The notes under the pieces are model-generated. The model was not told where the DNA came from. It ran no database searches and saw only the letters and a list, made by a program, of their open reading frames with translations. From Sumerlaeia bacterium (GTDB taxonomy: Bacteria > Sumerlaeota > Sumerlaeia > MVZB01): a DNA stretch of 64,000 bases. Numbering within the stretch: the first letter of the stretch is position 1; each line of letters begins with the position of its first letter. Position numbers and translations under genes: made by a program. The stretch lies in assembly GCA_041687335.1 (NCBI GenBank), contig JAWLCE010000005.1, forward strand, positions 13,201 to 77,200. Direction: 5' to 3'. Shown here piece after piece: positions 14,496-53,212 of the stretch.

Positions 14496-14891
14496 GTTCA
14501 ACCATGGCGCCCTATAGGGGAGACTTTTCCGCCTGCCATTGTGATGGCGCGGGGCGGGCGAGTCAAGAAACGGCCATTGGGAAGGACTTCGAGCCTTCAT
14601 TTTCTGTCGCCAAGACGCAGAGGAATGGCCGAATGATGCAAAGGGAGGATCATCTCCTTTCATGCAGCCCCCAGCGCACATGTCACCTGCGCACGGAAAA
14701 GCGGTCGTTTTCGATTTGGGTCTTTGTTTAGATCGAAAAATCAGAAGCATGGGGGATGGTGCGACTGCGGGAGGGATGGGCGGAGAAGGGAAAAATGCTA
14801 TCCAGATCGGCCGGGGTGCTGCCGATAAGGTAAACGAAAAGGGATCGGCGCGCGCCGGGGACCTGATCAATCCAGAACAGCGAAAGCCATC

Positions 14892-17800
14892 ATGGAAAAC
14901 AGTCCGCACGTCATAGGGATCGATCTCGGGACAACCAACTCGGTGGTCGCGGTGGTCGATTCGGGCGAACCCAACGTGATCAACAACCAGGAGGGGCGCA
15001 GCAAGACCCCCTCGGTGGTGGCCTTTGACGAACAAGGCGGGGTCACGGTCGGAGAGATCGCGCTGCGACAGGGGGCGACCCAGCCGCGGCGGACGATCTG
15101 TTCGGTCAAGCGCTTCATCGGCCGGATGCACGACGAGATTTTGGATGAGGGGGACCTGGTCTCGTTTGAGCTGACCGCCGACGAGGCCGGACGCTCGGCG
15201 ATCCGGGTGGACGAGAGGGTTTACCTGCCCGAGCAGATTTCGGCGCAGGTGCTGGCCAAGCTCAAGCAGGCGGCGGAGGATTACCTGGGCCAGCGCGTGG
15301 GGCGGGTGGTGCTGACCGTGCCGGCTTATTTCGACGACAACCAGCGGCAGGCGACGATGGAGGCGGCCAAGCTGGCCGGGCTGGAAGTGCTGCGCCTGCT
15401 CAACGAGCCGACGGCGGCGGCGATGGCCTATGGGTTGGGGCGGGGCGGACGCGAGACGGTGGCGGTCTATGACTTCGGCGGCGGCACGTTCGACTTCAGC
15501 GTGCTGGACATCGAGGACAAGACCTTTGAGGTCTTGTGTTCCAACGGCAACAGCCGGCTGGGCGGGGATGATCTCGACACGGCATTGACCGACTGGCTGG
15601 CGGACCGTTTCCAACAGGTCCACGGGATCGACCTGCGCGAGGATCCGATGACGTTGCGGCGGCTGCGGGATGCGGCCGAGCGGGCCAAGTGCGAGTTGTC
15701 GAGCGCGTTTGAGACGCTGGTCAGCCTGCCGTTCATCGCCTACGTGGACGGGGTGCCGATTCACCTTGAGGAGCGGATCGAGCGGGAGGTGTTCGAGGAG
15801 CTGGCCGAGCCGTATGTGCGTGAGACGATCGAATGCTGCGTGCGGGGGCTGCGCCAGGCGCGGGTGCGCAAGGAGGACATCACGCGCGTGATCCTGGTGG
15901 GCGGCTCGACGCGGATTCCGCTGGTGCAGGACAGCGTGGAGGACTTTTTCGGGCTGGCGCCGTTCAAGGGCATCAACCCCGACGAGATCGTGGCGCTGGG
16001 GGCGGCGATCCAGGGCGCGGTGATGAACGGTGAGCTGGAGGAGGTCGTGCTGCTGGACGTGACGCCCCACACGCTGGGGATCGAGCTGCGCGGCAACCGG
16101 CGCTCGATGCTGGTGGAGAAGAATGCGACGATCCCGATCAAGGTCCACAAGACGTTCAGCACAACCGAAGACCACCAGACCTTTGTCAACATCCACGTTT
16201 TGCAGGGCGACAGCGACAAGGCCAATGAGTGCCGGAGTCTGGGGCGGTTCACGCTTTCGGGGATCGAGGATGCGCCGGCGGGGGTGCCGCGCATCCGGGT
16301 AACCTTTTTCATCAATGCCGACGGCATCGTGGAGATTTCGGCGGCGGACTTGGCGAGCGGGGCCGAGCGCTCGCTGGTGATCAGCCATGCCTACCTGAAT
16401 TCGGACCAGCGCCAGAAGACTCAGGGTGAGGGGCGGCGCAAGCGGCGGCGGCGGCGGGCGATCATGGAATCGTCCGACGGCAGCGGTGAGCTGGCGCCGG
16501 TGCGCGCGCGGCGGGAGTCGACCGAGGCGCGCCGGCGTGATCCGGCCGCCACGGGATCGGCCGGCGGCGGGGCGACCGGCACGCATGTGAATTTCGCAAT
16601 GATCCACGGGGACACGGAACCGCAGCCGGTGCCGCGCCAGCCGGCGCGCAGCCGGGAGGCTGACGAACGGCAGGTGGTTGAAGCGGCGGTGGCCGGCCCG
16701 AGCGCGCCCGCAACCGAGGCCGCTGATTCAACCATCGGGCACGGGCCGCGGCGGGCGATGATACCGGCCGCGGCGGCGTTGACGCAGACGGTGACGGCGC
16801 CGCCGGCGGCCCGGGGGACGGTGCCCGCGGGTTCCCCGCCGGCAATGCCCACGCCACCGGCCACGCCCGTGACCATGCCGGTGGCTGCGTCCGCGGCGAC
16901 GCCGGTGGCCGCCGATGTGGCCCCGCGTGAGGAATTGCTTGCCGAGCTGCCGGCGGAGTTGCCGGCTGAGCTGGCGCCGATGGTGGAGATCCTGCTGGAG
17001 GGGCGGCGCGACGAGAACGCCTGCCGGCTGTATCGGGACGCACGGGCGCAGTTCGCCGAGTTCTGCCAGCAGCGCTTCGACCAGATATCACTCCAGCTTC
17101 TACTGGCGCGCCTGCACCTGTTTGCCGGCGAGGCCGAGAGCTCGCTGGAGGTGCTCGAGCAGTTGCGGATGCGGCCGGAGGCCCCGACCGAGCGGATGCT
17201 GGCGGCGTATGATGAATTCTGTGCCCAAGCCCCCGATAGCCTGGCCGGCCGCGGCGAGCGAGCCGAACTGGCCGAGCAGGCGGGGCAGATCGAGCGGGCG
17301 ATCGCGGACCTTGAGCTGCTGGTGGAGCCCGAGGACGCGGACCCGGCCCTGCTGGCGCGGCTGGCGGGACTCTACCGGCGCGCGCTGGGGGATCACTCCG
17401 ACGCGGCGATCCAGTTCAAGCTGGTGGGGCTGCATCTGCGCCTGCGCGACATCGACGCGGCGATCACGCAGCTCCAGCAACTGGTGACGCTGCCCGACCA
17501 CCGGCATCGGGCCAACAAGCTGCTGGGCCTGTGCTTCTGGCAGAAAGGGATGCGCCACCTGGCCTGGCAGAAGCTGCGCACGCTGCCCATCAATGACGAG
17601 ATGAAGGACATCCTCTACCGGTTGGCCGACGACATGGACCTGCACGACGAGCTGCTGCACGCCAAGTATGCGCTGGAGCGGATCTATGAGGTCGACATCC
17701 AGTATCGGGACGTGGGGGAGCGGCTGAAGAAGCTTTCGTACCGGCTCGAGCTGCAGCGCGATGGGCGCTACGGCAGCACCCCGGCGCCGCGAACGGGGCT

Positions 17801-18599
17801 GGGCACGACGCTGGAGTCGGGGGGCGAGCTGGGTGGGCGCTTCGAGATCATCGAGGAGATCAACCGCGGCTCGATGGGGATCGTCTACAAGGCGCGCGAC
17901 AAGATATTGGATGAGATCGTGGCGATCAAGGTGCTCAATGACTTCCTCTGCGCCGACCAGGAGGCGATCGAGCGGTTCAAGCAGGAGGCGCGCTCATCGC
18001 GGCGGCTGACCCACCAGAACATCGTGCGGATCCACGACCTGTTCGACCTGGACGGCAAAAAGTTCATCTCGATGGAGTTCATCGAGGGGGACAACTTGAA
18101 GACGCTGCTGGCGCGCAACGTGACCTTCAGCGACGACATCGCGCTGACCTACCTGTTCCAGATTTGCGAGGGGCTGGCCTATGCCCACCGGCTGCATGTG
18201 GTCCACCGCGACATCAAGCCGGCCAACATCATGATCACGGCGCGCAATCAGGTGAAGATCACCGACTTTGGCATTGCCAAGCTGCTGACCGAGCACCAGA
18301 CCAAGACCGGGACGCTGATCATGGGCACGCCGCTCTACATGGCGCCTGAGCAGATCGAGGGCGGGCGGATCGACCATCGCTGCGACATCTATGCCCTGGG
18401 GATCATGCTTTGGGAGATGGTGATGGGGCACCCGCCGTTCAATGAGGGCAACATCGAGTATCAGCACGTGCACAGCCCGGTGCCCGAAATCACCCGCACG
18501 GTCAGCGAAAAGCTGCGCAAGATCATTCTGCACTGCGTGAAGAAGAGGCCGGAGGAACGATTCCAGACGGCGGAAGAGATTTTGACACGGATTGTCTGA
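14892..18599 (+). CDS. Hsp70-like ATPase / TPR-like region / Hanks-type Ser/Thr protein kinase fusion protein
   Basis: Residues 1-505 carry the Hsp70 NBD signatures (IGIDLGTTNS, DFGGGTFD, LVGGSTRIP) and an SBD-beta segment, with no helical lid. A Pro/Ala-rich linker and a helical repeat region follow. The C-terminal 256 aa (about 17829-18599) carry kinase motifs VAIK, HRDIKPAN, DFG and APE. Confidence 0.85.
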   Translation: MENSPHVIGIDLGTTNSVVAVVDSGEPNVINNQEGRSKTPSVVAFDEQGGVTVGEIALRQGATQPRRTICSVKRFIGRMHDEILDEGDLVSFELTADEAGRSAIRVDERVYLPEQISAQVLAKLKQAAEDYLGQRVGRVVLTVPAYFDDNQRQATMEAAKLAGLEVLRLLNEPTAAAMAYGLGRGGRETVAVYDFGGGTFDFSVLDIEDKTFEVLCSNGNSRLGGDDLDTALTDWLADRFQQVHGIDLREDPMTLRRLRDAAERAKCELSSAFETLVSLPFIAYVDGVPIHLEERIEREVFEELAEPYVRETIECCVRGLRQARVRKEDITRVILVGGSTRIPLVQDSVEDFFGLAPFKGINPDEIVALGAAIQGAVMNGELEEVVLLDVTPHTLGIELRGNRRSMLVEKNATIPIKVHKTFSTTEDHQTFVNIHVLQGDSDKANECRSLGRFTLSGIEDAPAGVPRIRVTFFINADGIVEISAADLASGAERSLVISHAYLNSDQRQKTQGEGRRKRRRRRAIMESSDGSGELAPVRARRESTEARRRDPAATGSAGGGATGTHVNFAMIHGDTEPQPVPRQPARSREADERQVVEAAVAGPSAPATEAADSTIGHGPRRAMIPAAAALTQTVTAPPAARGTVPAGSPPAMPTPPATPVTMPVAASAATPVAADVAPREELLAELPAELPAELAPMVEILLEGRRDENACRLYRDARAQFAEFCQQRFDQISLQLLLARLHLFAGEAESSLEVLEQLRMRPEAPTERMLAAYDEFCAQAPDSLAGRGERAELAEQAGQIERAIADLELLVEPEDADPALLARLAGLYRRALGDHSDAAIQFKLVGLHLRLRDIDAAITQLQQLVTLPDHRHRANKLLGLCFWQKGMRHLAWQKLRTLPINDEMKDILYRLADDMDLHDELLHAKYALERIYEVDIQYRDVGERLKKLSYRLELQRDGRYGSTPAPRTGLGTTLESGGELGGRFEIIEEINRGSMGIVYKARDKILDEIVAIKVLNDFLCADQEAIERFKQEARSSRRLTHQNIVRIHDLFDLDGKKFISMEFIEGDNLKTLLARNVTFSDDIALTYLFQICEGLAYAHRLHVVHRDIKPANIMITARNQVKITDFGIAKLLTEHQTKTGTLIMGTPLYMAPEQIEGGRIDHRCDIYALGIMLWEMVMGHPPFNEGNIEYQHVHSPVPEITRTVSEKLRKIILHCVKKRPEERFQTAEEILTRIV

Positions 18600-18601
18600 C
18601 C

Positions 18602-18967
18602 ATGAGCCATAGCGATACCAAATACCAACTGCTGGCCGATTTCAACCCGCACCCGGACATCTGCGTGCGGCTGCTCGAGCGGCATGGGCCGTCGTTGACG
18701 GCGACCCTGGCGGGCCAGTTGCGGCTGGAAGGGTCGGCCCGCCTGCTCGAGTTCCTCGTGGAGCAGTTCGATCGCCACCATCCGCAGTGTCTGATTTTGG
18801 ACTGCGCCGAGTTGAGCTTCGTGGACAGCCAGGGATTATCGATGCTGTTGCAACTGCACAAGGCGTGCCGCAACGTGGGGATCGAGCTGAGCCTGCGCGA
18901 CCCCAACCCCTTCCTGCGCGACCTCTTGCGACTGACGCGGATTGACACCTACTTCCACATTTACTGA
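18602..18967 (+). CDS. STAS domain protein (anti-sigma factor antagonist-like, SpoIIAA/RsbV family)
   Basis: 121 aa with the conserved phospho-acceptor serine context ELSFVDSQGLSML. The ATG lies 3 nt after the kinase stop, so the two genes are likely co-transcribed. Confidence 0.8.
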   Translation: MSHSDTKYQLLADFNPHPDICVRLLERHGPSLTATLAGQLRLEGSARLLEFLVEQFDRHHPQCLILDCAELSFVDSQGLSMLLQLHKACRNVGIELSLRDPNPFLRDLLRLTRIDTYFHIY

Positions 18968-33189: not shown

Positions 33190-33702
33190 ATGGAACGACC
33201 GCCCGCCGACGCGGCGGTTTACAAGTTGTTCCTGGATAAAAAAATGTTTGAGTTTCTGCGCCGCAAGCCTGCCGCTCCCGCCGAACCGGCTCCCCGTCCG
33301 CCCGATGCGCGCCCGCTGATCGCGTTGATCGAGGACGAGGAAGATATCCTCCAACTGCTGACCATGGCCATGGAGCAGGCCGGCTGGGAGGTGGCCGTGG
33401 CCAGGGACGGCATACTGGGGTTGGAACTGGTGCGCCGGCGCCGGCCCGACCTGGTGGTGCTCGACATCAAGATGCCGCGGATGAATGGATATCAGGTGCT
33501 GACGCGGCTGCATCTGGACTCGACGCTGGTCCGAATCCCGGTGATCGTGATGACGAGCCAGGCGGCCGGGGAAAAGCTCAGCGACGAGGAATGGGCGCGC
33601 CGGCTGCGGGTCAATCGCTTTATTTCGAAGCCGTTTTCGCCCGAACAAATGGTTGAGCTGGTCCGCGAGGAGCTGGGGCGGCCCACCTCACCTCAACCGT
33701 AA
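33190..33702 (+). CDS. single-domain response regulator (CheY-like receiver)
   Basis: Receiver motifs LIALIEDEEDI, the phospho-acceptor VVLDIKMP and the conserved lysine ISKPF. Possible later start at 33244. No cognate kinase adjacent. Confidence 0.8.
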   Translation: MERPPADAAVYKLFLDKKMFEFLRRKPAAPAEPAPRPPDARPLIALIEDEEDILQLLTMAMEQAGWEVAVARDGILGLELVRRRRPDLVVLDIKMPRMNGYQVLTRLHLDSTLVRIPVIVMTSQAAGEKLSDEEWARRLRVNRFISKPFSPEQMVELVREELGRPTSPQP

Positions 33703-38841: not shown

Positions 38842-38858
38842 GGCGCGGGCGGAGGAAC

Positions 38859-40313: not shown

Positions 40314-40477
40314 CATTGCCGTCATTGCACTTGGCGATCCCGCTCCGTCATCTTCTCGGCTGTGCCTCTGCCTGCTGGCATTGTTTAGGTCCTGCCCGCC
40401 GGGTCGGTCTATACTGAACGCTGGCCAAACAAATGGCCTCTCGCGGCTGTCCAATACCAAGGGAAGAGGCCTTTCCA

Positions 40478-40978
40478 ATGAAGCTCTATCTGTTGCGCCA
40501 CGCCGAGGCGGTCGACATCGATGAGGCTGGCGGCGACGATGCGGCTCGCAAGCTGACCGACGCCGGCGAGCAGTCGGCCCGGCGCGCCGCCCGCGGCATG
40601 AAGCGACTGTCGATCCTGCCGGACAAGATTCTGACCAGTCCACTCGTTCGGGCGGCCCGCACCGCCGAATTGACGGCGCGCGAGCTGGGAATCACCAAGC
40701 GCGTGCGCGAGAACGAGCGCCTGGCCTCGGGCGTCCCGGTCGAGGCCATGGCCGAGCTGATCGGCTCACGCAGCGAGGAATCACTCATGCTGGTTGGCCA
40801 CAACCCGGATTTTGAGCTGCTGCTGGCGTGGTTGATATCCCCGGCGGGCGGCGCTCGCGTCAATCTCAAGAAGGGGGCGCTGGCGCTGGTTCAGGTCGAG
40901 CTGCCCCTGCAGCCCGGGGCCGGCATGCTGCGCTGGCTGATGACGCCCGGCCAACTGGCCCAGCTGGACCGAATTTGA
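40478..40978 (+). CDS. sixA: phosphohistidine phosphatase SixA-like (histidine phosphatase superfamily branch 1)
   Basis: RHAEA catalytic Arg-His motif right after the ATG (MKLYLLRHAEAV), plus a later histidine (LVGHNPD). RBS gggaagagg. Confidence 0.75.
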   Translation: MKLYLLRHAEAVDIDEAGGDDAARKLTDAGEQSARRAARGMKRLSILPDKILTSPLVRAARTAELTARELGITKRVRENERLASGVPVEAMAELIGSRSEESLMLVGHNPDFELLLAWLISPAGGARVNLKKGALALVQVELPLQPGAGMLRWLMTPGQLAQLDRI

Positions 40979-41064
40979 ATTGCAAAAAATGGCCGCCAAA
41001 GTTTGAATAGCGGGCGACAATTTGTCTGGGGGCAAGCGTCTTGGAATTCAGCGATTTCGTGACC

Positions 41065-41679
41065 ATGCTGATCGTGCTGGTGATTTTCTTCGCACCGGCG
41101 ATCAAGCAGATACTTGATAAGCTCAACGAAAGCAAGGGCTCGGCCCCCGAGGTCAGCGAGGCTGACCGTCGGATCCAGGAGGACCTGCGCCGGCGCCTGG
41201 GCGGCGATCAGCCCGAGGCGCCGACTCGCCCGCCCGTGCGCCCCGTGGTGATCCAGCGCCAGGGCGAGCGGCCGGTCGTGGTGACGCCACAGCCGGTTGC
41301 GCCCCCCGAGCCGCCGCGCCGGCCCGTCCCGCGTCAGGCGGCTGCCCCGCCGCCCCCGCAGCGGCGTCAGGCCCCGCTGCCTCCCCAGCCGCGTGAGGCG
41401 CGCCCGGAACCTGATCGCAGCTGGCAAACGCCCCCGCAACCGGCCGCGGCCCAGCTCGCCCACCCGCCATCCGTGCCCACCGTGCCGCGCGAACAATTGC
41501 CCGAGGTGGCCCGCGACGTGATGGTCACCCAGCGGGTGGAACCGGTCCGGACCCGGCGCAAGCGCAACCGCCGGCTGGAGCTGAACCCCACCACACTGGC
41601 GCGGGTGGCGCTGGTCAATGAAATCTGGCAGCCGCCGCTGGCGCTGCGCAAGGATCTGCCCTGGGAACAGAAACTTTGA
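41065..41679 (+). CDS. hypothetical proline-rich membrane-anchored protein
   Basis: N-terminal TM (MLIVLVIFFAPAI), then a 100-aa Pro/Arg/Gln-rich tract and a short basic C-terminal segment. Could instead start at the TTG at 41041. Confidence 0.5.
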   Translation: MLIVLVIFFAPAIKQILDKLNESKGSAPEVSEADRRIQEDLRRRLGGDQPEAPTRPPVRPVVIQRQGERPVVVTPQPVAPPEPPRRPVPRQAAAPPPPQRRQAPLPPQPREARPEPDRSWQTPPQPAAAQLAHPPSVPTVPREQLPEVARDVMVTQRVEPVRTRRKRNRRLELNPTTLARVALVNEIWQPPLALRKDLPWEQKL

Positions 41680-41692
41680 ATCGACATCAAAG

Positions 41693-43462
41693 ATGATGAT
41701 CAATCAGGCTGACCCGCCCTCAAGCCCGCTGGCCGAACAACCGGCCCGGTTGGTCGTGCTGTTGCGCCCGCTCGAGCCGGCGGAGGGGCTGGAGCCGGTC
41801 TATCGGATCGATCGCTTTCCCGCCACGATCGGCCGCCACGAGCTCAACAGCATTGAAATCGCCAATGAGGCGATTTCGCGCTACCACGCCCGGCTGGAGC
41901 GCGTCGGCAGCCAATTCCGCCTGCTCGACCTGCGTTCCTCCAATGGGACCTGGCTCAACGACCGCCGCATCCAGGTGGCGATGATCGACGACAGCGACAT
42001 CGTCTCCTTCGGCAGCGTCAAGTTCATCGTCGCGTTCGAGACCAGCGATGGCCTGCCCATCAGCGGCGGCTCGCCGGGAGGGGTTGAGCGCGACGGCACA
42101 TCCGAGATTCACCTCATCCAGCAGGCCGACCATGCCGAGACAATTCACTCCCAGCCCGCCGACCAGCGCCCGCGCCTGCTGGAACTGGAGGAGGCTCTCC
42201 CCGACGAGCCGGCGCTGGCCGAATCGCGCCGCCGCCTGATCGGGCTGAGCCGTCTGCAGGGGATCCTGCACGCGGCCGCCGGCGATGAGGCGCGCATGAT
42301 GAAGGCCGTGCTCGAGCTGCTTTTTGATGTGCTGCCCGTCAGCCGCGGGGCGATCCTGACGCGCGATATCCTGGACGCTCAGTTGTTTCGGCCGGTCGCG
42401 GTCCGCTCCCGCGCGCGCGGGGGGGGCGACAGCCGGATTGGTATCAGCCGCGGCGTCCTGCAGCGCTGCCTGCGGGAGAAGGTCGCCCTGCTCACACGCG
42501 ACGCCGGTGGCGACCTGCACCTGCGCCCCGACGCCGAGGTCCCCAGCCCATTGCGTTCGGTCATCTGCGCCCCGCTCATCAGCGGCGCCCATGTGCTGGG
42601 CTTCTGCCACCTCGAGACGCTCCAGCCCGAGCGCGCCTTCACGAATGATGACTTGACCTATCTGGTCGGCATCTGCGGCCAGACCTCGGTCCACCTCCAC
42701 AATCTGCGGATGACCCGCGAGAAGATCCAGTCCGAGCGGATGGCGGCCATCGGCCAGACGATCACCGGCATGGCCCACAACATCAAGAACATCCTGCTGC
42801 TGAGCCAGGGCGGCATCGAGATGATGGAAAAATCGATCAACCGCCGCAACTACGAGACCCTCGAGGAAACCTGGGGGCTGGTCCGGCGCGGGCTGGACCG
42901 GATCAACAGCCTGGTCCAGGACATGCTTGAGTATTCGCGCCCGCGCCACGTCGAGCGCGAGCAGATGAACGTCAACAACCTGTTGGCCGAACTGGCGCTG
43001 ACCTTTGCCGATGAGCTGCGCCGCCGCGGCGTCCACATCGAGCTCGACCCCGATCCCGAAGTTCCGGAATTGCCCCTCGACCGGCGCGGTTTGGAGAAGG
43101 CGCTCGTCAACCTGATCGTGAACGCGATCGAGGCCGCCGAGTCACAGGATGGCTGGATCGCCCTCTCCACCCGTATGCTCGAGGACGGCAACCTGGTCAT
43201 TCATGTGCGCGACGGTGGACCGGGCATCCCACGCGAGCTGCTCTCGCGGGTTTTCATCCCCTTCTTCACCACCAAGGGCTCCAAGGGTTCGGGGTTGGGC
43301 CTGCCGATTACTCGAAAAATCATCGAGGACATGGGCGGACGCATCGAGGTCCACTCCGAGGAAGGCCGCGAGACCTGTTTCACGATCACGCTCAATGTCG
43401 GCCCCGATGTCGCCCGCCTCGGTTCCTCCACCGCCGGGCAGCTCGACGAGGAACAGCCATGA
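41693..43462 (+). CDS. FHA domain / GAF domain / histidine kinase (HisKA + HATPase_c) sensor
   Basis: FHA block (RIDRFPATIGRHELNSIEI...SSNGTWLN), a central GAF-like region, an H-box (ITGMAHNIKN), and the N, G1 and G2 boxes (VNLIVNAIEA, DGGPGIP, GSGLGL). ATG at 41693. Confidence 0.85.
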   Translation: MMINQADPPSSPLAEQPARLVVLLRPLEPAEGLEPVYRIDRFPATIGRHELNSIEIANEAISRYHARLERVGSQFRLLDLRSSNGTWLNDRRIQVAMIDDSDIVSFGSVKFIVAFETSDGLPISGGSPGGVERDGTSEIHLIQQADHAETIHSQPADQRPRLLELEEALPDEPALAESRRRLIGLSRLQGILHAAAGDEARMMKAVLELLFDVLPVSRGAILTRDILDAQLFRPVAVRSRARGGGDSRIGISRGVLQRCLREKVALLTRDAGGDLHLRPDAEVPSPLRSVICAPLISGAHVLGFCHLETLQPERAFTNDDLTYLVGICGQTSVHLHNLRMTREKIQSERMAAIGQTITGMAHNIKNILLLSQGGIEMMEKSINRRNYETLEETWGLVRRGLDRINSLVQDMLEYSRPRHVEREQMNVNNLLAELALTFADELRRRGVHIELDPDPEVPELPLDRRGLEKALVNLIVNAIEAAESQDGWIALSTRMLEDGNLVIHVRDGGPGIPRELLSRVFIPFFTTKGSKGSGLGLPITRKIIEDMGGRIEVHSEEGRETCFTITLNVGPDVARLGSSTAGQLDEEQP

Positions 43463-45036
43463 TCCGACCCCTCCTGGTCCTGACCCTGCTGGCGATCATG
43501 ATCGCGCCCGTGCGGGGCGCCGAGTCCCCGCCTTCCCTGGACGCGGCTGCGCCGACCACCCCCACCCTGGCCGCCGAGGGCCCGGGGATTCACCTCTTTC
43601 CGCTGCTCTACCGCGGGGTGGACTGGGAGCCCGGTGTCGTCGAATGGTCGATCTTCGGGCCGCTGCTGGGCGCGCGCCGCGACCTGGCCACGACCGACAC
43701 ATTCTACGCCGCGCGCCCGCTGATGTCGGCCGGCACCAACGCCGATGGGCGGTTCCTCGACCTGCTGTTTCCGCTGGGCGGTCGCCGTCTGCGCCAGGAG
43801 CGCGCCGACGAGCTCGAGCGGCGCTGGGCGATGCCGATTTATTTCCACAGCCGCACCGAAAATCCTGTCTCCATGCGCGAGCGCAGCGTGTTCTTCCCGT
43901 TGGTCTATCGCGGCAGCCGGCGCACCGGCGATCAGACCGCCGGCTATTTCATCTTTCTGCCGTTCTATTGGAATGTGGAGGAGGGTGCGAGCTACTATTT
44001 CCCGCTGTTCCACCCCAACCCCGGGCGCTCACTGGTTTTCTGGCCGCTCTATGGCCATTTCCGCCGCGCCTTCGGCGCCGATGAAATCCGCTTCTGGGCC
44101 TGGCCCGGCTACGTTGAGACCATCGATGCCCCCAATCGCACCCGGACGATCCTCTGGCCGTTCTTCAGCCGCACCAGCGGCCAGACCCTGAACGGCTGGC
44201 GTGTGTGGCCGCTGGCGGCCCGTTACGAGCGAGCCGGCGGCGGTCGGCGCGACTGGTACCTGTGGCCGTTGGGCTGGCACGTGCGGCGCCCCGCCCAGGG
44301 CAACCGCTCCGAGCTGGCGCTCGACGCCTTCCTGCCGTTCTACCTCAAGATGAGCCAGGGTGAAATGAATGCGCGCTACTACGCCGTCTGGGGGGAATCC
44401 ATCCGCCCCACCCAGCGCACCAGCGCCTGGCTCTGGCCGCTCTACACACACACCGTCAGCCTGAGCCCTGAGTTCACCCGCCACCGGGTGCTGCTGTTTT
44501 TGGTCGATGTGCTGCGCGGTGAGGGGCCGCGCCGCACAATCGTCTTTCCCTTCTACGGCCGGCGCGAGGACGAGCGCCAACTGCGCCGCTTCGTGCTCTT
44601 CCCGTTCTATTCGGACCGCCGCCAGCAACTCGCCGACGGTGGCGTCTACACCAGCCGCTACCTGTTGCCATTCGTCGTCTCACAGCGCTGGGTGGATGCC
44701 GACGACCGTCCGCTGCGCAGCCGCTTCACGCTGGCGCCCTTCTACCGCGACATTCGCAATGCCGACGGCTCCAGCTACCTGAGCTGGCCGCACCTGCTGC
44801 CCTACACCGAGCAGGCGGGCATGGATCGCAACTGGGCGCCGCTGTGGACGATCTACTCGCGCCGCAACGACGGCGCCGGCACGGTCGAGCGTCGCGTGCT
44901 GGGCAAGCTCTGGCGCTCGCGCACCGTCGAGGGCGTCGGCACCGAACGCGAGTTCAACTTTTTGCTCGGCCGCTGGCGCCGCCACCTGGACGGCGGCGCC
45001 AGCTTCTCGCTTTTGGGATTCGAGCTTGCCGGTTGA
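43459..45036 (+). CDS. secreted repeat protein with about 24 tandem 20-aa aromatic-Pro repeats (WPLY/FPFY/LPFY cores)
   Basis: ATGA overlap with the kinase stop. Signal peptide (MIRPLLVLTLLAIMIAPVRGA). Recurring motif hydrophobic-W/F-P-L/F-Y-basic roughly every 20 residues, with strong GC3 bias throughout. Confidence 0.65.
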   Translation: MIRPLLVLTLLAIMIAPVRGAESPPSLDAAAPTTPTLAAEGPGIHLFPLLYRGVDWEPGVVEWSIFGPLLGARRDLATTDTFYAARPLMSAGTNADGRFLDLLFPLGGRRLRQERADELERRWAMPIYFHSRTENPVSMRERSVFFPLVYRGSRRTGDQTAGYFIFLPFYWNVEEGASYYFPLFHPNPGRSLVFWPLYGHFRRAFGADEIRFWAWPGYVETIDAPNRTRTILWPFFSRTSGQTLNGWRVWPLAARYERAGGGRRDWYLWPLGWHVRRPAQGNRSELALDAFLPFYLKMSQGEMNARYYAVWGESIRPTQRTSAWLWPLYTHTVSLSPEFTRHRVLLFLVDVLRGEGPRRTIVFPFYGRREDERQLRRFVLFPFYSDRRQQLADGGVYTSRYLLPFVVSQRWVDADDRPLRSRFTLAPFYRDIRNADGSSYLSWPHLLPYTEQAGMDRNWAPLWTIYSRRNDGAGTVERRVLGKLWRSRTVEGVGTEREFNFLLGRWRRHLDGGASFSLLGFELAG

Positions 45037-45048
45037 ACCGCCCCAGCC

Positions 45049-46983
45049 TCACGGCTCCAGCGGGGGGATCGGCCAGCTCCAGATGTTGGTGAGGGTGGAG
45101 AAGTAGAGCCGGCCATTGAGCTCCGCCAGCCCGGTGGTGGCGCGAGTCGGCAGGCTGACCAGCTTTTTGAACTCCCGGCTGCCCGGCGTGATGCGCCCGA
45201 TCGCATCGCGGAACAGGCAATAAATCATCCCGTCGGAGCCGACCAGCATCGCGCGCGGGGCCTGGTTGCCCGCCACCTCGCCGACGCCCTCCAGTTCCCG
45301 CTGATGGACCACTTCGCGGCGCGCCGGGTCGAAGACGAAATAGAGCGCCTTGCCCGAGCGGTTGGTCAGGCCATGGACCAGCCCGTCCGAGGCCACGACC
45401 AGGTCGCGCACGGCCGGCACGGAGGGACTGAACGGCGCATGCCAGACCACCTCGCGCCGGTCAGGGTCGAATAGATAAAGCTCAGCTTCCTTGGCCACGG
45501 CCTGGCCGCCGGTGCCGGCCACGATCGTCGTCCCGCCCACCACCAGCCCGTCGGGCAGTTGCGCCAGCGCCACCGTGCTGTGGTGGCGGATCAACTGCTC
45601 GTGGGTCAGCAGGTGGTGCTCCTCGCTCTCGAGGTCATAGATCAGCATGCCGCCGCCGGTCAGCCCGTAATCGGGTGTTCCGACCATGATGACCCGGCGC
45701 CCATCGGCCAGCGCCAGCAGGGCATGGGGCCGATTGATCGCCGAGCTGCGCTTGTTCAGCCGGCGCGGGTTCTGTTGATCGCCCGTGCCGCCGATCGGCT
45801 TGGCCGTATCATAGTCGTAGAGGTATCCGCCGGAATATTGCGCGGCGATGATGTGGCCGCGCTGGAGCGCCAGCGCGTTGAGGTGCCCGCCCATGTGCTG
45901 GCCCGGCTGATGGCTCAACGTGCCGGTGACGGTGTCGAGTGAAATCACCCGCAGCGGCAGGCCGGTGGAACCATAAATGGTCCGGCCGTCGGGTCCGGCA
46001 ATGATCGACTTCACATAGGCCCCATCGCTGTGGTAATCGAATTCCACGCGACGGGGTTTTCCGGTGTCGGGTTCCTCGAGCATCAGGAACTTTTCGGTGA
46101 TGTTAAACTGGGTGATCCGCGGGCCTTTGGCCAGCGCCACCCGCTGGATTCCCTGCGCGCCTTCAAGCATCGGGACTCGAGCCACCGGCGGCTTCTCGAT
46201 TTCGCGCCGCTCGCCCCGATACAGCTCGAGCCATGGGCTGTCCGAGGTCGGCCGCGCGTAGACGCGTCCGTTGCTGCCGCGGAAAACCTCGGGCCATGCC
46301 TGACGGCGCTCCGACTCGTCAAGCAACAGTGTGAACTGGCCCGTGTCCGGGTTGCGCGCCACCAGCTGGCTGGCCGTCGCCCCGATCCCAGCATAGACCC
46401 AGCCGGCGTCATCGCAGGCAAGCCCCCGTGGATATTGCGGCCAGCTCTCCTTGTTCATCGCGCCGTGATCGATCAGCTCGCGCGTATCAGGGTTGAATGA
46501 ATACAGGTGCGCTTTTGGATAGACCCCCGCCCAGATGATGCCGTTGTCATCCTCGGTCATGCGCATCGCGAGGTTGTCGCTGACGTGCTGCCAGAAGGTG
46601 AAGCGCCGCTCGGCGGGATCAAACTCCAAAAATGTGCGGCCGAAGAGCGTGTAGAGCCGGTTGCGACTCGAGAAGATGGCCGCGAACGGGGCATCCCCAC
46701 GCGGCGGACCCGGCAGGTCCATCTGCTCGAGCGCCCCCGTCAGCGGATCGATCAGCAGCAGATACTTGGTGGAAAAGGTCTCGGCCGGATAAGTCATCAG
46801 CAGCGGCCGGCCGTCCTTGTCATAGGAGGCAAAGGTGAAGCGATTGTTGAAGATCGGCGCCGCCGGCCCGTGATCGATCAACCCTTGGGTGTCGGCCTCC
46901 CTGGCATTGGACGCCGGCGCGGCGCCGACCCCCCCCGCCAGCATGACCCAGAACATGGCCGCCCACAGGATGCGTCCGCTCAT
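45049..46983 (-). CDS. secreted hypothetical protein, probable beta-propeller
   Basis: ATG at 46983 with a signal peptide (MSGRILWAAMFWVMLAGGVGAAPA). Beta-propeller-like composition with repeated DG.xY / GG.LY segments. 644 aa. Confidence 0.6.
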   Translation of the reverse strand: MSGRILWAAMFWVMLAGGVGAAPASNAREADTQGLIDHGPAAPIFNNRFTFASYDKDGRPLLMTYPAETFSTKYLLLIDPLTGALEQMDLPGPPRGDAPFAAIFSSRNRLYTLFGRTFLEFDPAERRFTFWQHVSDNLAMRMTEDDNGIIWAGVYPKAHLYSFNPDTRELIDHGAMNKESWPQYPRGLACDDAGWVYAGIGATASQLVARNPDTGQFTLLLDESERRQAWPEVFRGSNGRVYARPTSDSPWLELYRGERREIEKPPVARVPMLEGAQGIQRVALAKGPRITQFNITEKFLMLEEPDTGKPRRVEFDYHSDGAYVKSIIAGPDGRTIYGSTGLPLRVISLDTVTGTLSHQPGQHMGGHLNALALQRGHIIAAQYSGGYLYDYDTAKPIGGTGDQQNPRRLNKRSSAINRPHALLALADGRRVIMVGTPDYGLTGGGMLIYDLESEEHHLLTHEQLIRHHSTVALAQLPDGLVVGGTTIVAGTGGQAVAKEAELYLFDPDRREVVWHAPFSPSVPAVRDLVVASDGLVHGLTNRSGKALYFVFDPARREVVHQRELEGVGEVAGNQAPRAMLVGSDGMIYCLFRDAIGRITPGSREFKKLVSLPTRATTGLAELNGRLYFSTLTNIWSWPIPPLEP

Positions 46984-47051
46984 GATGAAAATCCTCCGCT
47001 GGAATTGATCTTGATCCAATAGAAAATCGATGAAAATTTCTCGCCGTCCGA

Positions 47052-47804
47052 TCAGCTTCCCGGCTTGCAGACCGAACAGGGCTCCAGGCCGCGCGCATGG
47101 GCCACCTCGAGCGCCAAGGGATTGCGGCTGCGGCTCAGCGAGCGGCAGTCGGCCCGGTGATAGCGCGTTCCCGAATCAGTCACGTAAACCGTCGGCCCGC
47201 CCTTGCCCGCCGCCACCGGAACCATAGCCCGCTGCGCGTCCGGCTGCTCCGCCCCGGCCCCCGCCGCCCGCTCGGCCGTGCCTGTTTCCGCCGTCGCCTG
47301 GCTGGCGAGATTGGGGTTCCACAAGCCCTTGCGCGCCTCGCTGGCGCGTTGCTCATAAATCTTGAACAGCTCCATCAGCGCGAATTTCTCGCGCGTGTAG
47401 ACGCGGGCATAGCCCTGGCGCACCAGCTCCAGGTTGACCGGCAGCCCGTCGGGCACCCGATACAGCATCGCCAGCAGCCGGTCGTAACGGTCGCGCGGTC
47501 GCTCGGGGTCAACCTCGACCCAGACCTCCTCGCCGGCCAGCAGGTTATAGGTGAACCACGCCGCCTCGCGGCCATAGAACGTCCGCGCCGGGTCGCCGCT
47601 CAGTTCCGGGGTATCCACCCCGCGCAGCCGGCAGCGCACCTCCTGCCCGTCCATTCGTAGCGCCACGGTGTCGCCGTCGACCGTGCGGATGATTTCAGCG
47701 CGCGGCAATGCCGTAAAATCAGGCCGCGGCGGCTCGGGCAGGCGCTGGGCCGTTGCCGCCACCGGCAGCAGCAGGCAGACCATCAACATCAGGCGCTGAA
47801 GCAT
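47052..47804 (-). CDS. thermonuclease (SNase-like) family protein with a C-terminal Cys/His cluster
   Basis: Signal peptide. SNase blocks VDGDTV and RLRGVDTPE. C-terminal YHRADCRSL...CSVCKP cluster. Confidence 0.7.
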   Translation of the reverse strand: MLQRLMLMVCLLLPVAATAQRLPEPPRPDFTALPRAEIIRTVDGDTVALRMDGQEVRCRLRGVDTPELSGDPARTFYGREAAWFTYNLLAGEEVWVEVDPERPRDRYDRLLAMLYRVPDGLPVNLELVRQGYARVYTREKFALMELFKIYEQRASEARKGLWNPNLASQATAETGTAERAAGAGAEQPDAQRAMVPVAAGKGGPTVYVTDSGTRYHRADCRSLSRSRNPLALEVAHARGLEPCSVCKPGS

Positions 47805-49129: not shown

Positions 49130-52100
49130 TTACCGCCGCCCATTCACGCCGCGGTTGCCGTTATGGGCTTGATTTCCATTTTTGCCATTTCGGCCGTTGA
49201 TCTGGTGGTTGATGCGGCCGGGCAGCTCCAGCGCCGTGTCGAGCGGTGTGATCGGGACGAGGGTGGGGTCGGAGAGCGTCCCGCCGACGCGCACGCTGAT
49301 CACCTGACCCACCAGCCGATTGAAGATGTCCAGCGCACCGCCGATCAGCGGCACGTCGCGCGCGAACTGAAGGAACAGCGCCCGCAGTTGGAGGTCCAGG
49401 TTGCCGTCGAGCGTCACAGCCCCCGACACCCGCATATCGACCACCGGGTTCTGCATGTGGATTCCTTCGCTGGTGATGCTGCGCTCGACAAGCTGGAACG
49501 GCCCCTGGATGCGCGAGAAGACAATGTCCTCAAAGATCGGCAGTCGCAGCAGCCCCCCCAGTGCGTTGAAAATCCGGTTGGCGACGAAGCGGCTCTCATC
49601 GATCCTCGCGGTGCCCTCACCCCACATCAGCAGCGGATGCTCATCGCCGCCCAGCGCTATGGTCACGTCCACCCGCCCGCTCAGATTGCCCGAGAACATG
49701 CCGCCCGGCCGCGCCTGCCCCGTCATCGATTCGATGACCGGCCGTATCTCGACATTGAGCACCTCGCTGTTGATGTGCAGGCGCCGGTTGAAGAAGGTGC
49801 CGTTCAGGTCCACCGTCCCCCCATCGACCCGCACCTGCGAAAGATACCAGCGCAGCATCCCCGGCTGGCGGCGTTTGTAAGCATCGAACTGCAGCATCGC
49901 GTCCACGTTACTGAAGACGACGTTGCGGTATTCCCCCGTGTCGGTGCGGAACATCCCGCGCACGCTGAGGCTCGGCGTCAGCGCGGGGTTGAATTTCAGG
50001 TCGTCGGGCCACTCAGCCGGCGGCGGGTCTCCCGGCCCGCGCCAGCGGTCGATCCACTCATCAATCGAGAAGTGATCGCCGCTGACGTCGAAGGCGATCG
50101 TCGGGGGCTGGCCGTCGGGCCGGTCCCAGAGGATGTCAAAGGTCGAGCGGACGTTGACGGAGCCGGTCCCGGGCGCCACACCGATCGGCTGGGGCGTCCA
50201 AAGCCGCCCCTTCTCGTAGAGTGCCAGCCCCGTCAGCCCGCGCAGCGGCGTCGGCATGCGCAGCAGGGTCAGCTCGGCATTGTCCAGCCGCAGCCGGCCG
50301 CTGTAATCATCGACCCACTCCGCCTTCAGTTGCTCGCCGGGGGCTTCCTGTTCCAGCACCGCCGTCAGGTAGTCGATCATGCCCGGCCAGGTCTGGGGCG
50401 GGATAAACCCCTCGCGCGGGCGCAGCTGATGGCGGTGGTCGATTGACGCCAGGCCGCCGACGCGGAAGCGCTCCAAGCCATGGGGCACCCGGCGCTGCAT
50501 TTCGCGCAACGCCCCTGCCAGCTGGATGGCGACCTCGCCCCCGCCCGGGCGTAGCGTGCCGCTGGTCATGAAGTCAAGTTCCCCGAAGCGGCCGCTGGTC
50601 GGCGCCAGCCTCAGGCTTTCCTGATCGAAAAGCAGTTCGACGCGGGGCGAGGTGAGCGGCCCGCCCACGCGCTGGACGCTGAAGCTGGTCTCCAGGTCGT
50701 TGATCACGACGCGGATCTCCTGGTCACCCGCGCGCCACTGCTCGGGCCGGCCGCGCAGGCGCGTCTCGATCAGCGCCTGGCCACGAGCATATTCAACCTG
50801 CTCGGGCAGCTCAAACAGCTCCCGCTCGCGCGCCTGCTCCAGCGCATTGGCCAGTGAGGTCTCCAGTTGCAGGTTCAGGTCCAGCAGCGGTTCTTGCCAG
50901 GGCAGGCGCCGGCCTTCGATCCCGCCATCGACCAGGAACTCGCCCTCCAGCGTCCGGCCGCGAACCTGGTCGAGCATGAGCGTGCGCCCGGACCAGATGG
51001 CCGTGCCCGACAGCTCACTCACCGGCGCGGGCAGCCGCTGATGGTCCACATTCCCATTCTCGACACGCAGCGTCAGCTCCAAGTCATCGGGTGGTGAGCC
51101 TTCGTCGGTCGCCCGCTCCATGGATTCGATGCTGATGCGGCCCTCGAGCCGGAGCCGTTCGGCACCCAGCTGGATCGGCCCCTGGACCTGCTCGGCCTGC
51201 TCCAGCTCGAGGCGGGTGGCAAAATCGCGCACGTCCAGCTTGAGCTGCAACGGCTCCTGGCGCCAACGGTCCAGCCGCATCTGTTCGGTGCCGAGCGTCA
51301 GCACCGCATCGCCCTCGATCGGTGGCAGGTCCAGCTCGAGCTCGCCCTCGGGATCGAGCCGCTGCGCGATGCGCCGGGCGTGCTCGACCAGCACCGGCAC
51401 CGGCCCCGCCGCCCGCGCCGTCGCCGTCAGCGTCTGGCTGGTCCACAGCTCCGGCCCACCGAGCACATGCGCCTCCAGGGTGAGGCTCGTTCCACCCAGC
51501 CGCGCGCTTGGCACGTGGAGCCGCGCCTCACGGCTGGTGAACTCCAGCTCTCCCCTCAGGTCCGTCAACGGTTCGGGCAGGGCCGGGTGCTCGACCTCCG
51601 CCCGCCGGAGCCGCAGCCGCCCCTCCGCCCGGACGCGCTCCATCGCCTGCTCCATGACGAGCGGGTCGCTCAGCCGCAGTGTGCCGCTGCCGACAATGTC
51701 GCCGGTCAACTGAAGTCCCTCCAGGGCCTGCTCGGTAGTCTGCCCACTGGGGGTCTCGAGTTCGCCCAAATCGCCCGCCGTGTGCCAGTCCAGCTCGACC
51801 TGGCCGACATGCCCCGCCAGCAGATCACCGGTGGCAGTCCCCTCCAAGCGGACGGGCAATCCGGCGATGACCCCATTCAGGTCCTCCAGGGTCAGCGTGT
51901 CGGTCGTCAGGCTCACGCGGGCCGAGATATCACGAATCGGCCCGGCCAGCTCGGGAATCTTCCAGGCCACGCCTTCCATCGTATAGGTCGCCTGCAACGA
52001 CGTGGGATGGGTGGTCAACTGGTCGCCGGCGACACTGCCGGTCAGGGTGGCGACGCCCTCGCCGGGACGGGCGGCGACGCCGTGGGGCAGCAGCCAGTCG

Positions 52101-53212
52101 CCCATTGCCGCCAGCCCTTCATCGCGCAGCTCGAAACGCTCGAGCGATGCCGAATATGGAAACGGCGCCTCGATTTCCATCTGCCCATGCATGAGCATGT
52201 CGGCATTGGGGCTGCTCATCGTCAGTCGTTCGATCTTGGCCAGGCGGGCCTCCTGGTCGAGCGTGGCCACCCATCGCAGGTCAATCCGGTCGACCTCATG
52301 AAGGGTCGCGTCCTGATCGTCGTAGATGCGAGTGTTGTCCAGCAGCAGCCGGCCCTCGGTGTGCCAGTTCAGCCCGTCGCGCCGGAGGCGTCCCTCCAGC
52401 CGCGCCGGCCGGGCCTGAATCTCCGCCGGCAGCAACCCCGGCATCAGCCGGCCCGTGTCGAGGGCGCCGATGCGCATCGTCCACTGGCCGCGCTGCTGCC
52501 CCTGCTCGAGGTCCAGCTCCGCCTGGAGCTGAAAATCGCGCCGGCCGTCGCCCCGCCAGTCGCCGGTGGCCTCGACCCGCCGCGGGCGGGGCTGACCCTC
52601 AAAATCCACCTCGATAGCCATATCATGGATACTGGCGACCGTGTGCGTGGTGCCGGTGTCGTCGGGCTCCAGCCAGCGCAGCCGCACCGGCGAGATGCGC
52701 AGCATCTCGAGCGCCACGCTGCGCTCCCCCCGCTCCTCGTCCTGGTTTGCCTGAATGATTTCGATGATCCGCGGCCAAGGCTCCATCAGCTCGGGCCGCC
52801 CCTCGCGCAGCGTCACGTCAATATGGAACGGGCCGACCAGCTCGATCGCCTGCATGACGTAGGGCCGGCCGCCGAAGATCAGCCGCGGCAACGAGCTGTC
52901 CACCCGCACCGCCTCGGCCTCGAGCAGCCGCTCCCCCGTCTCCGGGTCGGTGAGCACCGGGCGCTCCACATCGAGCCGCGCCCGCCCCAGCCGCAGCGTC
53001 GCCTGGTCGAATTCCAGCCCCAGCCCAGTTGCCTCTCCAAAACGCTCGCTCAGCAGCGCATCCAGCCGCTCGTGGCGGATCGGAATGAACAGGAGCACGA
53101 CCAGCGCCACGACCAACAAACCCAGCAGGCCAGCCGCAATCAGCAGCCAGCGCCGGCGGCGCGGGGGGGTCTCCTCCCGTTCCTGTTCGTCCTTTTCCGC
53201 CTCGATGCCCAT
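49130..53212 (-). CDS. AsmA/TamB-like giant envelope protein (N-terminal membrane anchor, DUF3971-like)
   Basis: 1360 aa. N-terminal TM (WLLIAAGLLGLLVVALVVLLFIPI), followed by a long beta-rich repetitive body typical of AsmA-like lipid-transfer proteins. Confidence 0.7.
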   Translation of the reverse strand: MGIEAEKDEQEREETPPRRRRWLLIAAGLLGLLVVALVVLLFIPIRHERLDALLSERFGEATGLGLEFDQATLRLGRARLDVERPVLTDPETGERLLEAEAVRVDSSLPRLIFGGRPYVMQAIELVGPFHIDVTLREGRPELMEPWPRIIEIIQANQDEERGERSVALEMLRISPVRLRWLEPDDTGTTHTVASIHDMAIEVDFEGQPRPRRVEATGDWRGDGRRDFQLQAELDLEQGQQRGQWTMRIGALDTGRLMPGLLPAEIQARPARLEGRLRRDGLNWHTEGRLLLDNTRIYDDQDATLHEVDRIDLRWVATLDQEARLAKIERLTMSSPNADMLMHGQMEIEAPFPYSASLERFELRDEGLAAMGDWLLPHGVAARPGEGVATLTGSVAGDQLTTHPTSLQATYTMEGVAWKIPELAGPIRDISARVSLTTDTLTLEDLNGVIAGLPVRLEGTATGDLLAGHVGQVELDWHTAGDLGELETPSGQTTEQALEGLQLTGDIVGSGTLRLSDPLVMEQAMERVRAEGRLRLRRAEVEHPALPEPLTDLRGELEFTSREARLHVPSARLGGTSLTLEAHVLGGPELWTSQTLTATARAAGPVPVLVEHARRIAQRLDPEGELELDLPPIEGDAVLTLGTEQMRLDRWRQEPLQLKLDVRDFATRLELEQAEQVQGPIQLGAERLRLEGRISIESMERATDEGSPPDDLELTLRVENGNVDHQRLPAPVSELSGTAIWSGRTLMLDQVRGRTLEGEFLVDGGIEGRRLPWQEPLLDLNLQLETSLANALEQARERELFELPEQVEYARGQALIETRLRGRPEQWRAGDQEIRVVINDLETSFSVQRVGGPLTSPRVELLFDQESLRLAPTSGRFGELDFMTSGTLRPGGGEVAIQLAGALREMQRRVPHGLERFRVGGLASIDHRHQLRPREGFIPPQTWPGMIDYLTAVLEQEAPGEQLKAEWVDDYSGRLRLDNAELTLLRMPTPLRGLTGLALYEKGRLWTPQPIGVAPGTGSVNVRSTFDILWDRPDGQPPTIAFDVSGDHFSIDEWIDRWRGPGDPPPAEWPDDLKFNPALTPSLSVRGMFRTDTGEYRNVVFSNVDAMLQFDAYKRRQPGMLRWYLSQVRVDGGTVDLNGTFFNRRLHINSEVLNVEIRPVIESMTGQARPGGMFSGNLSGRVDVTIALGGDEHPLLMWGEGTARIDESRFVANRIFNALGGLLRLPIFEDIVFSRIQGPFQLVERSITSEGIHMQNPVVDMRVSGAVTLDGNLDLQLRALFLQFARDVPLIGGALDIFNRLVGQVISVRVGGTLSDPTLVPITPLDTALELPGRINHQINGRNGKNGNQAHNGNRGVNGRR

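Follow-up and report, generated by a model that had tools for sequence, protein, structure and literature searches.

An FHA-GAF histidine kinase gene joined to the gene of an exported β-hairpin repeat protein in Sumerlaeota

A stretch of 64,000 nucleotides (nt) from a Sumerlaeia bacterium (contig JAWLCE010000005.1, positions 13,201 to 77,200 of the forward strand, assembly GCA_041687335.1), referred to below as the window, was analysed around a cassette of co-directional genes that encodes a histidine kinase with FHA and GAF domains (the FHA-GAF kinase) and, directly after it, an exported all-β protein built from short hairpin repeats (the repeat protein). The reading favoured here, and held with moderate confidence, is that the cassette belongs to a Sumerlaeota-specific operon in which a soluble and competent histidine kinase is joined to an exported envelope protein, the supply of which is tied to the kinase pathway. 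This reading draws on the conserved residues of the kinase, on the tight junction between the two genes in divergent Sumerlaeota loci and on the genomic surroundings of the repeat-protein family in other bacteria.

Gene order and coding evidence

Four co-directional genes were found in the open reading frame (ORF) listing on the + strand between 40433 and 45036; they encode, in this order, a SixA-like phosphatase, a proline-rich membrane protein (the Pro-rich protein), the FHA-GAF kinase and the repeat protein (Table 1). Reading of the sequence gave TGA, 13 nt and ATGATG at the junction of the Pro-rich protein and kinase genes, and CAGCCATGATCC, with a 4-nt ATGA overlap, at the junction of the kinase and repeat-protein genes. 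The GC content at third codon positions (GC3) was 0.83–0.87 in the Pro-rich, kinase and repeat-protein ORFs, which is the third-position bias of real genes; the SixA-like ORF likewise has this bias (the window is 67% GC). Gene products identical to the three proteins of 204, 589 and 525 amino acids (aa) are already on record from one NCBI contig. No sigma-70/promoter-like site was found by a consensus scan of the + strand from 40300 to 45300, and an Rfam scan of 38000–47500 returned zero matches.

A preliminary description of the window, made from the sequence alone, had reported three co-directional genes with spacings of 13 and −4 nt, and both the ORFs and the junction sequences confirmed this arrangement. 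The transmembrane helix of the Pro-rich protein, the signal peptide and aromatic-proline repeats of the last protein, a receiver-only gene as the nearest receiver and a fusion of Hsp70 to a Ser/Thr kinase (Hsp70-STK; matched by Pfam HSP70 and Pkinase) were all recovered as that description had them. An N-terminal FHA domain in the kinase had been set beforehand as its test, and the domain was found, with GAF, HisKA and HATPase_c also above cutoff. The SixA-like gene upstream and the tie of the repeat family to MCE/Mla and MMPL genes go beyond what had been described.

Domains and conserved residues of the kinase

The domains of the 589-aa kinase were assigned with Pfam. FHA was matched at residues 45–107 (E = 1.2e-14; 55 bits against a PF00498 cutoff of 20.7), GAF in the region 198–335 (GAF_2, 32.8 bits against 28.6; GAF, 31.2 against 22.4), HisKA at 354–417 (27.5 bits, barely above the cutoff of 26.9) and HATPase_c at 463–569 (E = 5.9e-26, 91.5 bits); Pfam gave neither a PAS nor a receiver domain in this protein. 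The kinase was taken to be soluble and cytoplasmic because hydropathy analysis found no hydrophobic or transmembrane segment in it.

At least 58 orthologs with the full architecture, 30–58% identical, were returned by a search of 5.8 billion proteins; those that carry a taxon name in the source are Candidatus Sumerlaeota or Sumerlaeia, a result that assigns the window itself to this phylum. Conservation was assessed in an alignment of 59 full-architecture kinases. In the FHA domain G47, R48, S62, R63, H65, G85 and N89 were invariant and N84 was kept in at least 90% of the sequences, a set that fits the phospho-threonine pocket residues Gly47-Arg48, Ser62-Arg63-x-His65 and Asn84-Gly85. H362, N473, N477, D507, G511, G532, G534 and G536 of the H, N, G1 and G2 motifs were also invariant, and the sequence has the H-box histidine and the ATP-binding boxes of a class I histidine kinase. 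Because these FHA and catalytic residues do not vary, both the reading of phospho-threonine and histidine-kinase chemistry appear, from the alignment, to be under selection; with the FHA pocket residues intact, it is reasonable to expect that the input comes from a Ser/Thr kinase. Scores of 186.9, 137.4 and 94.8 bits were obtained against the AtoS, ZraS and NtrB equivalog models (cutoffs 646, 479 and 240, respectively), with only the kinase core aligned, which suggests an NtrB-like core outside the AtoS, ZraS and NtrB families.

It is very improbable that the protein works mainly as a phospho-threonine-dependent scaffold or as a phosphatase and not as a phosphodonor to a receiver. No receiver gene adjoins the kinase gene in any Sumerlaeota locus examined and a SixA-like phosphatase adjoins it in two loci, as such a role would allow; the invariance of the H, N, G1 and G2 motifs and the pairing of related kinases with receiver-only genes, described below, nevertheless argue for phosphotransfer.

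Pairing of kinase and repeat protein in Sumerlaeota

Among the loci examined (numbered with the prefix L), a repeat-protein gene follows an FHA-GAF kinase gene in Sumerlaeota loci only, namely in the window and in L001, L003 (= L011), L010, L012, L089, L091, L093 and L099. The gap between the two genes ranges from −8 to +10 nt in eight distinct loci: L091 and L093 share the 4-nt overlap of the window, the overlap in L012 is approximately 8 nt, and L001, L003, L010 and L089 have 7–10 nt between the genes. The pair persists down to 26–30% identity between the repeat proteins and 37–39% between the kinases, and the other neighbours differ. Since so tight a pairing has persisted through this divergence amid differing neighbours, co-expression of the two genes looks selected, as far as gene order can tell; the co-expression put forward in the preliminary description is in keeping with the spacing retained in these eight loci. 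Every repeat-protein gene of the Sumerlaeota clade for which upstream sequence is available has the kinase.

Sequence and predicted fold of the repeat protein

The repeat protein contains 18 copies of an [aromatic/aliphatic]-x-P-[LFW]-x motif, compared with 1.5 ± 1.2 copies in shuffled versions of the sequence (maximum of seven in 2000 shuffles). A model calculated by AlphaFold2 with the family alignment (predicted local distance difference test, pLDDT, 91.1; predicted template modelling score, pTM, 0.79) is all-β and nearly free of helix, with 52 strands of mean length 5.7 residues and maximum length 8 residues; 17 of the 18 motif prolines are located in turns of three or four residues between predicted strands. 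Proline also accounts for ten of the 12 invariant columns among 46 homologs. Signal peptides occur across the family, together with a few lipoboxes. A search with the family profile yielded 3,350 representatives of 50%-identity clusters at E ≤ 1e-3 and 1,371 at E ≤ 1e-30, which makes this a large family.

No Pfam or NCBIfam match was obtained for the protein or for any of 46 relatives, the repeat-family profile found 0 PDB sequences and Foldseek found no structural analog in the PDB (best TM-score 0.19). Local likeness was seen by Foldseek to the β-meander sheets of the teneurin YD shell, MORN, the CPAP G-box, OspA and propellers. Assignment as a YD/Rhs-repeat shell, a MORN protein or a β-propeller was rejected in the absence of a profile match and of a global superposition. 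An integral outer-membrane barrel was rejected as well: the strands are short, a mean of 5.7 residues being too little for a membrane barrel, and a conserved C-terminal β-signal is lacking, with a C-terminal F, W or Y in 13 of 46 family members and many hydrophilic tails. On the strength of the model, the protein is read as soluble or lipid-anchored and as periplasmic or outer-membrane-associated.

Genomic context of the repeat-protein family

The context of the family was examined in 80 loci, with one genome per species, gathered with the ten closest sequences. In 67 of the 80, the next gene downstream, in the same orientation, is mlaE, with mlaF and mlaD behind it in most cases; the MlaD of these clusters includes a helical needle region. 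In ∼50 Verrucomicrobiota loci the gene of a ∼929-aa RND transporter of the MMPL family lies directly upstream, which gives the order MMPL, repeat protein, mlaE, mlaF, mlaD, a conserved cluster of five genes (for example, in L019, L022, L024 and L027), and a TPR protein takes the place of MMPL upstream of the gene in Desulfuromonadales. Neither mlaE nor the kinase was found in ten of the 80 loci, five of which stop at contig ends. MMPL is kept in four of the five intact loci of this kind (L032, at L032:3086-5875, L039, L046 and L061) and also in the contig-end loci L068 and L079. Near the repeat-protein gene in Sumerlaeota loci, no mla or MMPL gene was found.

The MlaD proteins of the Planctomycetes–Verrucomicrobia–Chlamydiae (PVC) group lack an outer-membrane barrel, and partner proteins have been proposed for them (PMC10665443). 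The gene association described above makes the repeat family a candidate for such a partner. A bolder form of this idea, which we regard as speculative and unlikely, is that the family supplies the missing periplasmic or outer-membrane partner of barrel-less MCE/Mla and MMPL transporters and that in Sumerlaeota its gene has moved into the slot that a response regulator would normally fill behind a phospho-threonine-gated histidine kinase, so that Ser/Thr and His-Asp signalling would directly set its supply.

Loss of mla has been reported in one Sumerlaeota subgroup (PMC8092238). This loss would suit an account by hitch-hiking, with kinase and repeat protein unrelated in function, in which the repeat-protein gene was parted from its transporter neighbours, came to lie behind a highly expressed kinase gene in the ancestor of some Sumerlaeota and has remained there since; so would the several kinase orthologs without a repeat protein and the fact that kinase orthologs far outnumber close relatives of the repeat protein in the database. 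We nevertheless consider hitch-hiking unlikely, as tight or overlapping junctions have been kept through divergence while other neighbours differ, which points to selection on co-expression.

An FHA protein as a regular member of Mla clusters was considered and rejected, since it was seen in L086 only: in this Verrucomicrobia locus a 212-aa FHA protein with a Cys-rich tail is encoded 80 nt past mlaD (L086:10554-11192), which is unique among the loci examined, and its gene is followed by a 475-aa ORF, presumed to be a transposase. In the window, 4 kb from the repeat-protein gene, the product of 49130..53212 (−), 1,360 aa, gave weak sub-threshold matches to YhdP, DUF748 and T2SS-N and may be an AsmA-like trans-envelope lipid-transport protein.

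Genes upstream of the kinase

The SixA-like gene clearly belongs to the His_Phos_1 superfamily (Pfam His_Phos_1, E = 2e-10). Against TIGR00249 it scored 70.1 bits, under the cutoff of 74.5, over the full length of the model and from residue 16 of the ORF. Translation from ATG 40478 gives the N-terminus MKLYLLRHAEA, and GGGAAGAGG was found upstream of this likely start. A homolog with 51% identity is encoded directly upstream of the orthologous kinase in L095, and the SixA-like gene may be the first gene of the cassette.

The Pro-rich protein has a single N-terminal transmembrane helix and a Pro/Arg/Gln-rich middle, as judged from hydropathy and composition (39 of 212 residues are proline when the alternative start is used), and ends in a basic stretch followed by the motif L..E...PPLALR. 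It gave no significant Pfam or NCBIfam match, and only the protein itself was returned from the 5.8 billion proteins. Its layout and C-terminal motif recur upstream of the kinase at L096:9266-9901 and L091:1-165, where the relatives were recognized by position and by the C-terminal motif, not by the search. In five other loci its place is taken by a PEGA-like lipoprotein of 126–134 aa (L001:5845-6225, L003:5852-6232, L010, L012 and L093:5884-6288; mutual identity 65–70%), which is unrelated to the Pro-rich protein and belongs to the other Sumerlaeota clade. The idea that the module has a conserved third member was rejected, since the upstream gene is PEGA-like in five loci and Pro-rich in three, and L089 has neither kind. 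Both the SixA-like phosphatase and the Pro-rich protein are probably accessory, lineage-specific parts of the kinase unit.

The recurrence, in two forms, of the order membrane-protein or lipoprotein gene, kinase, repeat protein bears on a different account, in which the repeat protein is an input and reports the state of the envelope (e.g. its lipid load) to the kinase through the co-encoded membrane protein. Such an arrangement would resemble that of the accessory proteins of CpxP/NlpE-CpxA or YycHI-WalK, and several Thr-Pro sites of the Pro-rich tail could conceivably serve, once phosphorylated, as targets of the FHA domain. The account is nonetheless improbable: only ∼6 residues of the Pro-rich protein lie outside the membrane, the PEGA-like lipoprotein has no transmembrane helix and thus leaves no evident transmembrane relay in its loci, and the upstream gene is non-homologous between the clades and absent in L089.

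Candidate receivers and Ser/Thr kinases

The only Response_reg match among the ∼45 window ORFs scanned is that of the receiver-only gene listed in Table 1. Distantly related FHA-GAF kinases are directly followed by a receiver-only gene (135–138 aa) in L101, L107, L164 and L162 (L101:5115-5528, L107:5650-6060, L164:2978-3385 and L162:5277-5999); the kinase and receiver genes overlap by 4 nt in L107 and are 9 nt apart in L101 and 48 nt apart in L164. These four receivers are 47–75% identical to each other and form a distinct subfamily, in which the segment between the LTG and KP motifs comprises ∼28 residues and is longer than in CheY. Because related kinases have a receiver-only gene directly downstream, a receiver-only partner is plausible for the window kinase too, and the window receiver is a candidate phospho-acceptor. 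It is 29–33% identical to the four post-kinase receivers and scores 67–72 bits against them, compared with 41 bits against CheY. It was not found to be conserved near the kinase in other loci, and a receiver-only protein of L089 was rejected as its ortholog at only 23% identity. A sigma-54 activator encoded 3 kb downstream in L009 was likewise rejected as the missing regulator for lack of a receiver domain.

The C-terminal 490 residues of the window Hsp70-STK align with a 1,622-aa TPR-STK (39% identity, E = 2e-97), and the alignment takes in the non-catalytic helical region. In L003 and L010 the gene of this TPR-STK immediately follows that of the repeat protein; in L101 and L107 a Ser/Thr kinase is encoded ∼2 kb past the receiver gene. 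A Ser/Thr kinase lies nearby in only seven of 90 loci. If a 4-Mb genome is roughly assumed to contain ∼30 genes for Ser/Thr kinases, chance alone would place one near ∼4 of 90 loci, so that the proximity is possibly near the chance rate and the link to the FHA-GAF kinase is suggestive only. The Hsp70-STK is kept as an unproven candidate for producing the phospho-threonine that the FHA domain would read. A STAS-domain gene (18602..18967, +, 121 aa) starts 3 nt past the Hsp70-STK stop, and its product may be the kinase's own partner or substrate.

A fully specified route can be drawn from these candidates, in which the Hsp70-STK phosphorylates the FHA target, the FHA-GAF kinase phosphorylates the window receiver and the repeat protein is the regulated output. 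In favour of this route, L003 and L010 have a kinase gene of the Hsp70-STK subfamily right behind the repeat-protein gene, receiver-only regulators follow related kinases, and the window receiver is more like those regulators than like CheY. Several points make it doubtful all the same. The Hsp70-STK and receiver genes lie 8–23 kb off and are not near the kinase in most loci, the count of nearby Ser/Thr kinases is perhaps near chance by the rough estimate, 29–33% is an unremarkable identity for two receivers, the Hsp70-STK gene is itself flanked by a STAS-domain gene and a receiver-only protein is by itself unable to activate transcription of an output gene.

Proposed mechanism and its weighing

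In the mechanism proposed for the Sumerlaeota-specific operon, the FHA domain would dock on a partner that a Hanks-type kinase has phosphorylated on threonine and the GAF domain would bind a small ligand, and the two together would set autophosphorylation of His362. The phosphate would then be handed on to an unlinked regulator, most probably of the receiver-only type. The repeat protein would be translated from the kinase message and exported by Sec, to act in the periplasm or at the outer membrane, most likely in lipid trafficking or envelope maintenance; this role is proposed because the family outside Sumerlaeota is almost always found inside MCE/Mla clusters, often with MMPL. Production of the repeat protein would thereby be tied to the kinase pathway and probably controlled with it. 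The route from Ser/Thr to His-Asp signalling put forward in the preliminary description stands to this extent as plausible from the intact FHA domain, whereas the two partners that it named, the Hsp70-STK and the window receiver, are unproven. Its suggestion that the output of the kinase includes the repeat protein gained no supporting result, and the orthologous kinases of L095, L096 and L097 do without the protein.

The following points weigh against the proposed operon. The cognate regulator and the Ser/Thr kinase are candidates only, and a cytoplasmic kinase and an exported repeat protein cannot touch directly. No repeat protein is encoded within 10 kb of the kinase orthologs in L095 (57% identity), L096 (52%) and L097 (30%), and among 80 more distant kinase relatives on metagenome contigs one, the closest, has it alongside. 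Neither mlaEFD nor MMPL was found in the window, which has the kinase without them, whereas the mlaEFD clusters have the repeat gene without the kinase; the lipid-transport role suggested for the window protein is thus an extrapolation from relatives with 21–27% identity. Weak terminator-like hairpins were detected inside the cassette genes by the consensus scan, although at 67% GC such intragenic hairpins are taken to be uninformative. The source organism is known from metagenomes only. Because several of its orthologs lack a repeat protein, the kinase has a function of its own and does not need that protein; the link between the two is one-directional.

Comparison with characterized systems

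To our knowledge, EspA of Myxococcus xanthus, which has the domain order FHA-PAS-PAS-kinase-receiver, is the only FHA-histidine-kinase system that has been studied. EspA is an orphan hybrid histidine kinase that acts with the Ser/Thr kinases PktA5/PktB8 and with the co-encoded membrane protein EspB (PMC4320627). Like the window kinase it carries FHA at the N-terminus and lacks a cognate regulator gene next to its own, and its co-transcription with a non-signalling envelope or membrane protein and its link to Hanks-type kinases can be likened to the arrangement in the window. The two are alike in the kinase core (NF052573, E = 1.1e-38), but the window kinase lies outside the EspA family, with 132.9 bits against a cutoff of 1400 and an alignment limited to the core. 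EspA has PAS domains and a receiver of its own, whereas the window kinase has GAF and no receiver; the partner is an inner-membrane protein (EspB) in the former case and an exported β-repeat protein in the latter. Physical junctions between Ser/Thr and His-Asp signalling are few in bacteria, and FHA histidine kinases are one of them; a compact FHA-GAF kinase conserved across an uncultured phylum offers a simpler model.

The kinases of L101, L107, L164 and L162 have the architecture of the window kinase at 31–37% identity and also a tightly joined downstream gene, but this slot is filled by the 135–138-aa receiver in those loci and by the exported repeat protein (525 aa in the window) in Sumerlaeota. 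The kinase thus joins the known FHA orphan type; what is new is its conserved pairing with an uncharacterized envelope family where its relatives carry a receiver.

The family members in the MMPL-repeat-mlaEFD clusters of Verrucomicrobiota and the TPR-repeat-mlaEFD clusters of Desulfuromonadales and Dadabacteria are 21–27% identical to the window protein over the full length and share with it the conserved prolines and the signal peptide. A possible functional analogy exists with MlaA/VacJ, PqiC and the barrel at the C-terminus of long MlaD proteins, all of them envelope-side partners in MCE systems. The repeat protein is unlike MlaA or PqiC in that it matches no Pfam family, and its strands are too short for a barrel. 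The wider value of the present observations lies in the repeat-protein family and its association with transporters in Verrucomicrobiota, Desulfuromonadales, Dadabacteria and their relatives, where MlaD is barrel-less; if the family is the missing partner at the outer-membrane end, the idea can be tested directly with the gene pairs.

HPt domains and NPr are the targets of SixA. The RH(A/G) motif found near the N-terminus of Escherichia coli SixA is also present in the window SixA-like protein; the window kinase has no HPt domain.

Features of the window

The coordinates of the cassette, of its domains and of the two distant candidate partners are given in Table 1.

Table 1. Position of the cassette genes, their domains and the candidate partner genes in the window
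Feature	Coordinates	Strand	Basis or remark
SixA-like phosphohistidine phosphatase	ORF 40433, likely start ATG 40478, ..40978	+	His_Phos_1, TIGR00249
Pro-rich membrane protein, 204 aa	41065..41679	+	ATG 41065; alternative TTG 41041 gives 212 aa
FHA-GAF-HisKA-HATPase_c kinase, 589 aa	41693..43462	+	Pfam
FHA domain, residues 45–107	41825..42013	+	Pfam FHA
GAF domain, residues 198–335	42284..42697	+	Pfam GAF_2, GAF
Kinase core, HisKA 354–417 and HATPase_c 463–569	42752..43399	+	Pfam
Phospho-acceptor His362 of kinase	42776..42778	+	Alignment
ATGA overlap of kinase stop and repeat-protein start	43459..43462	+	Direct sequence reading
Exported all-β hairpin-repeat protein, 525 aa	43459..45036	+	Signal peptide, AlphaFold2 model, motif statistics
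Signal peptide of repeat protein, residues 1–20	43459..43518	+	Hydrophobic N-terminus ending VRG/AE
Hsp70-(helical region)-Ser/Thr kinase fusion	14892..18599	+	Pfam HSP70 and Pkinase
Receiver-only response regulator	33190..33702	+	Pfam Response_reg, E = 3.5e-23

A convergent gene (45049..47019, −) ends 12 nt past the repeat-protein stop. Its 656-aa product has an N-terminal hydrophobic signal and gave no Pfam or NCBIfam match, and the gene is not beside the cassette in other loci.

Opposite the Hsp70 domain of the Hsp70-STK, a strong NAD-GH match (PF10712, E = 3.5e-93) was obtained at approximately 14900..16600 on the − strand, in the N-terminal part of ORF 11748..16607. We take this match to be the known antisense-of-Hsp70 artefact and not a gene; the real minus-strand gene in this ORF is a GT4/PMT_2 glycosyltransferase at its lower-coordinate end.

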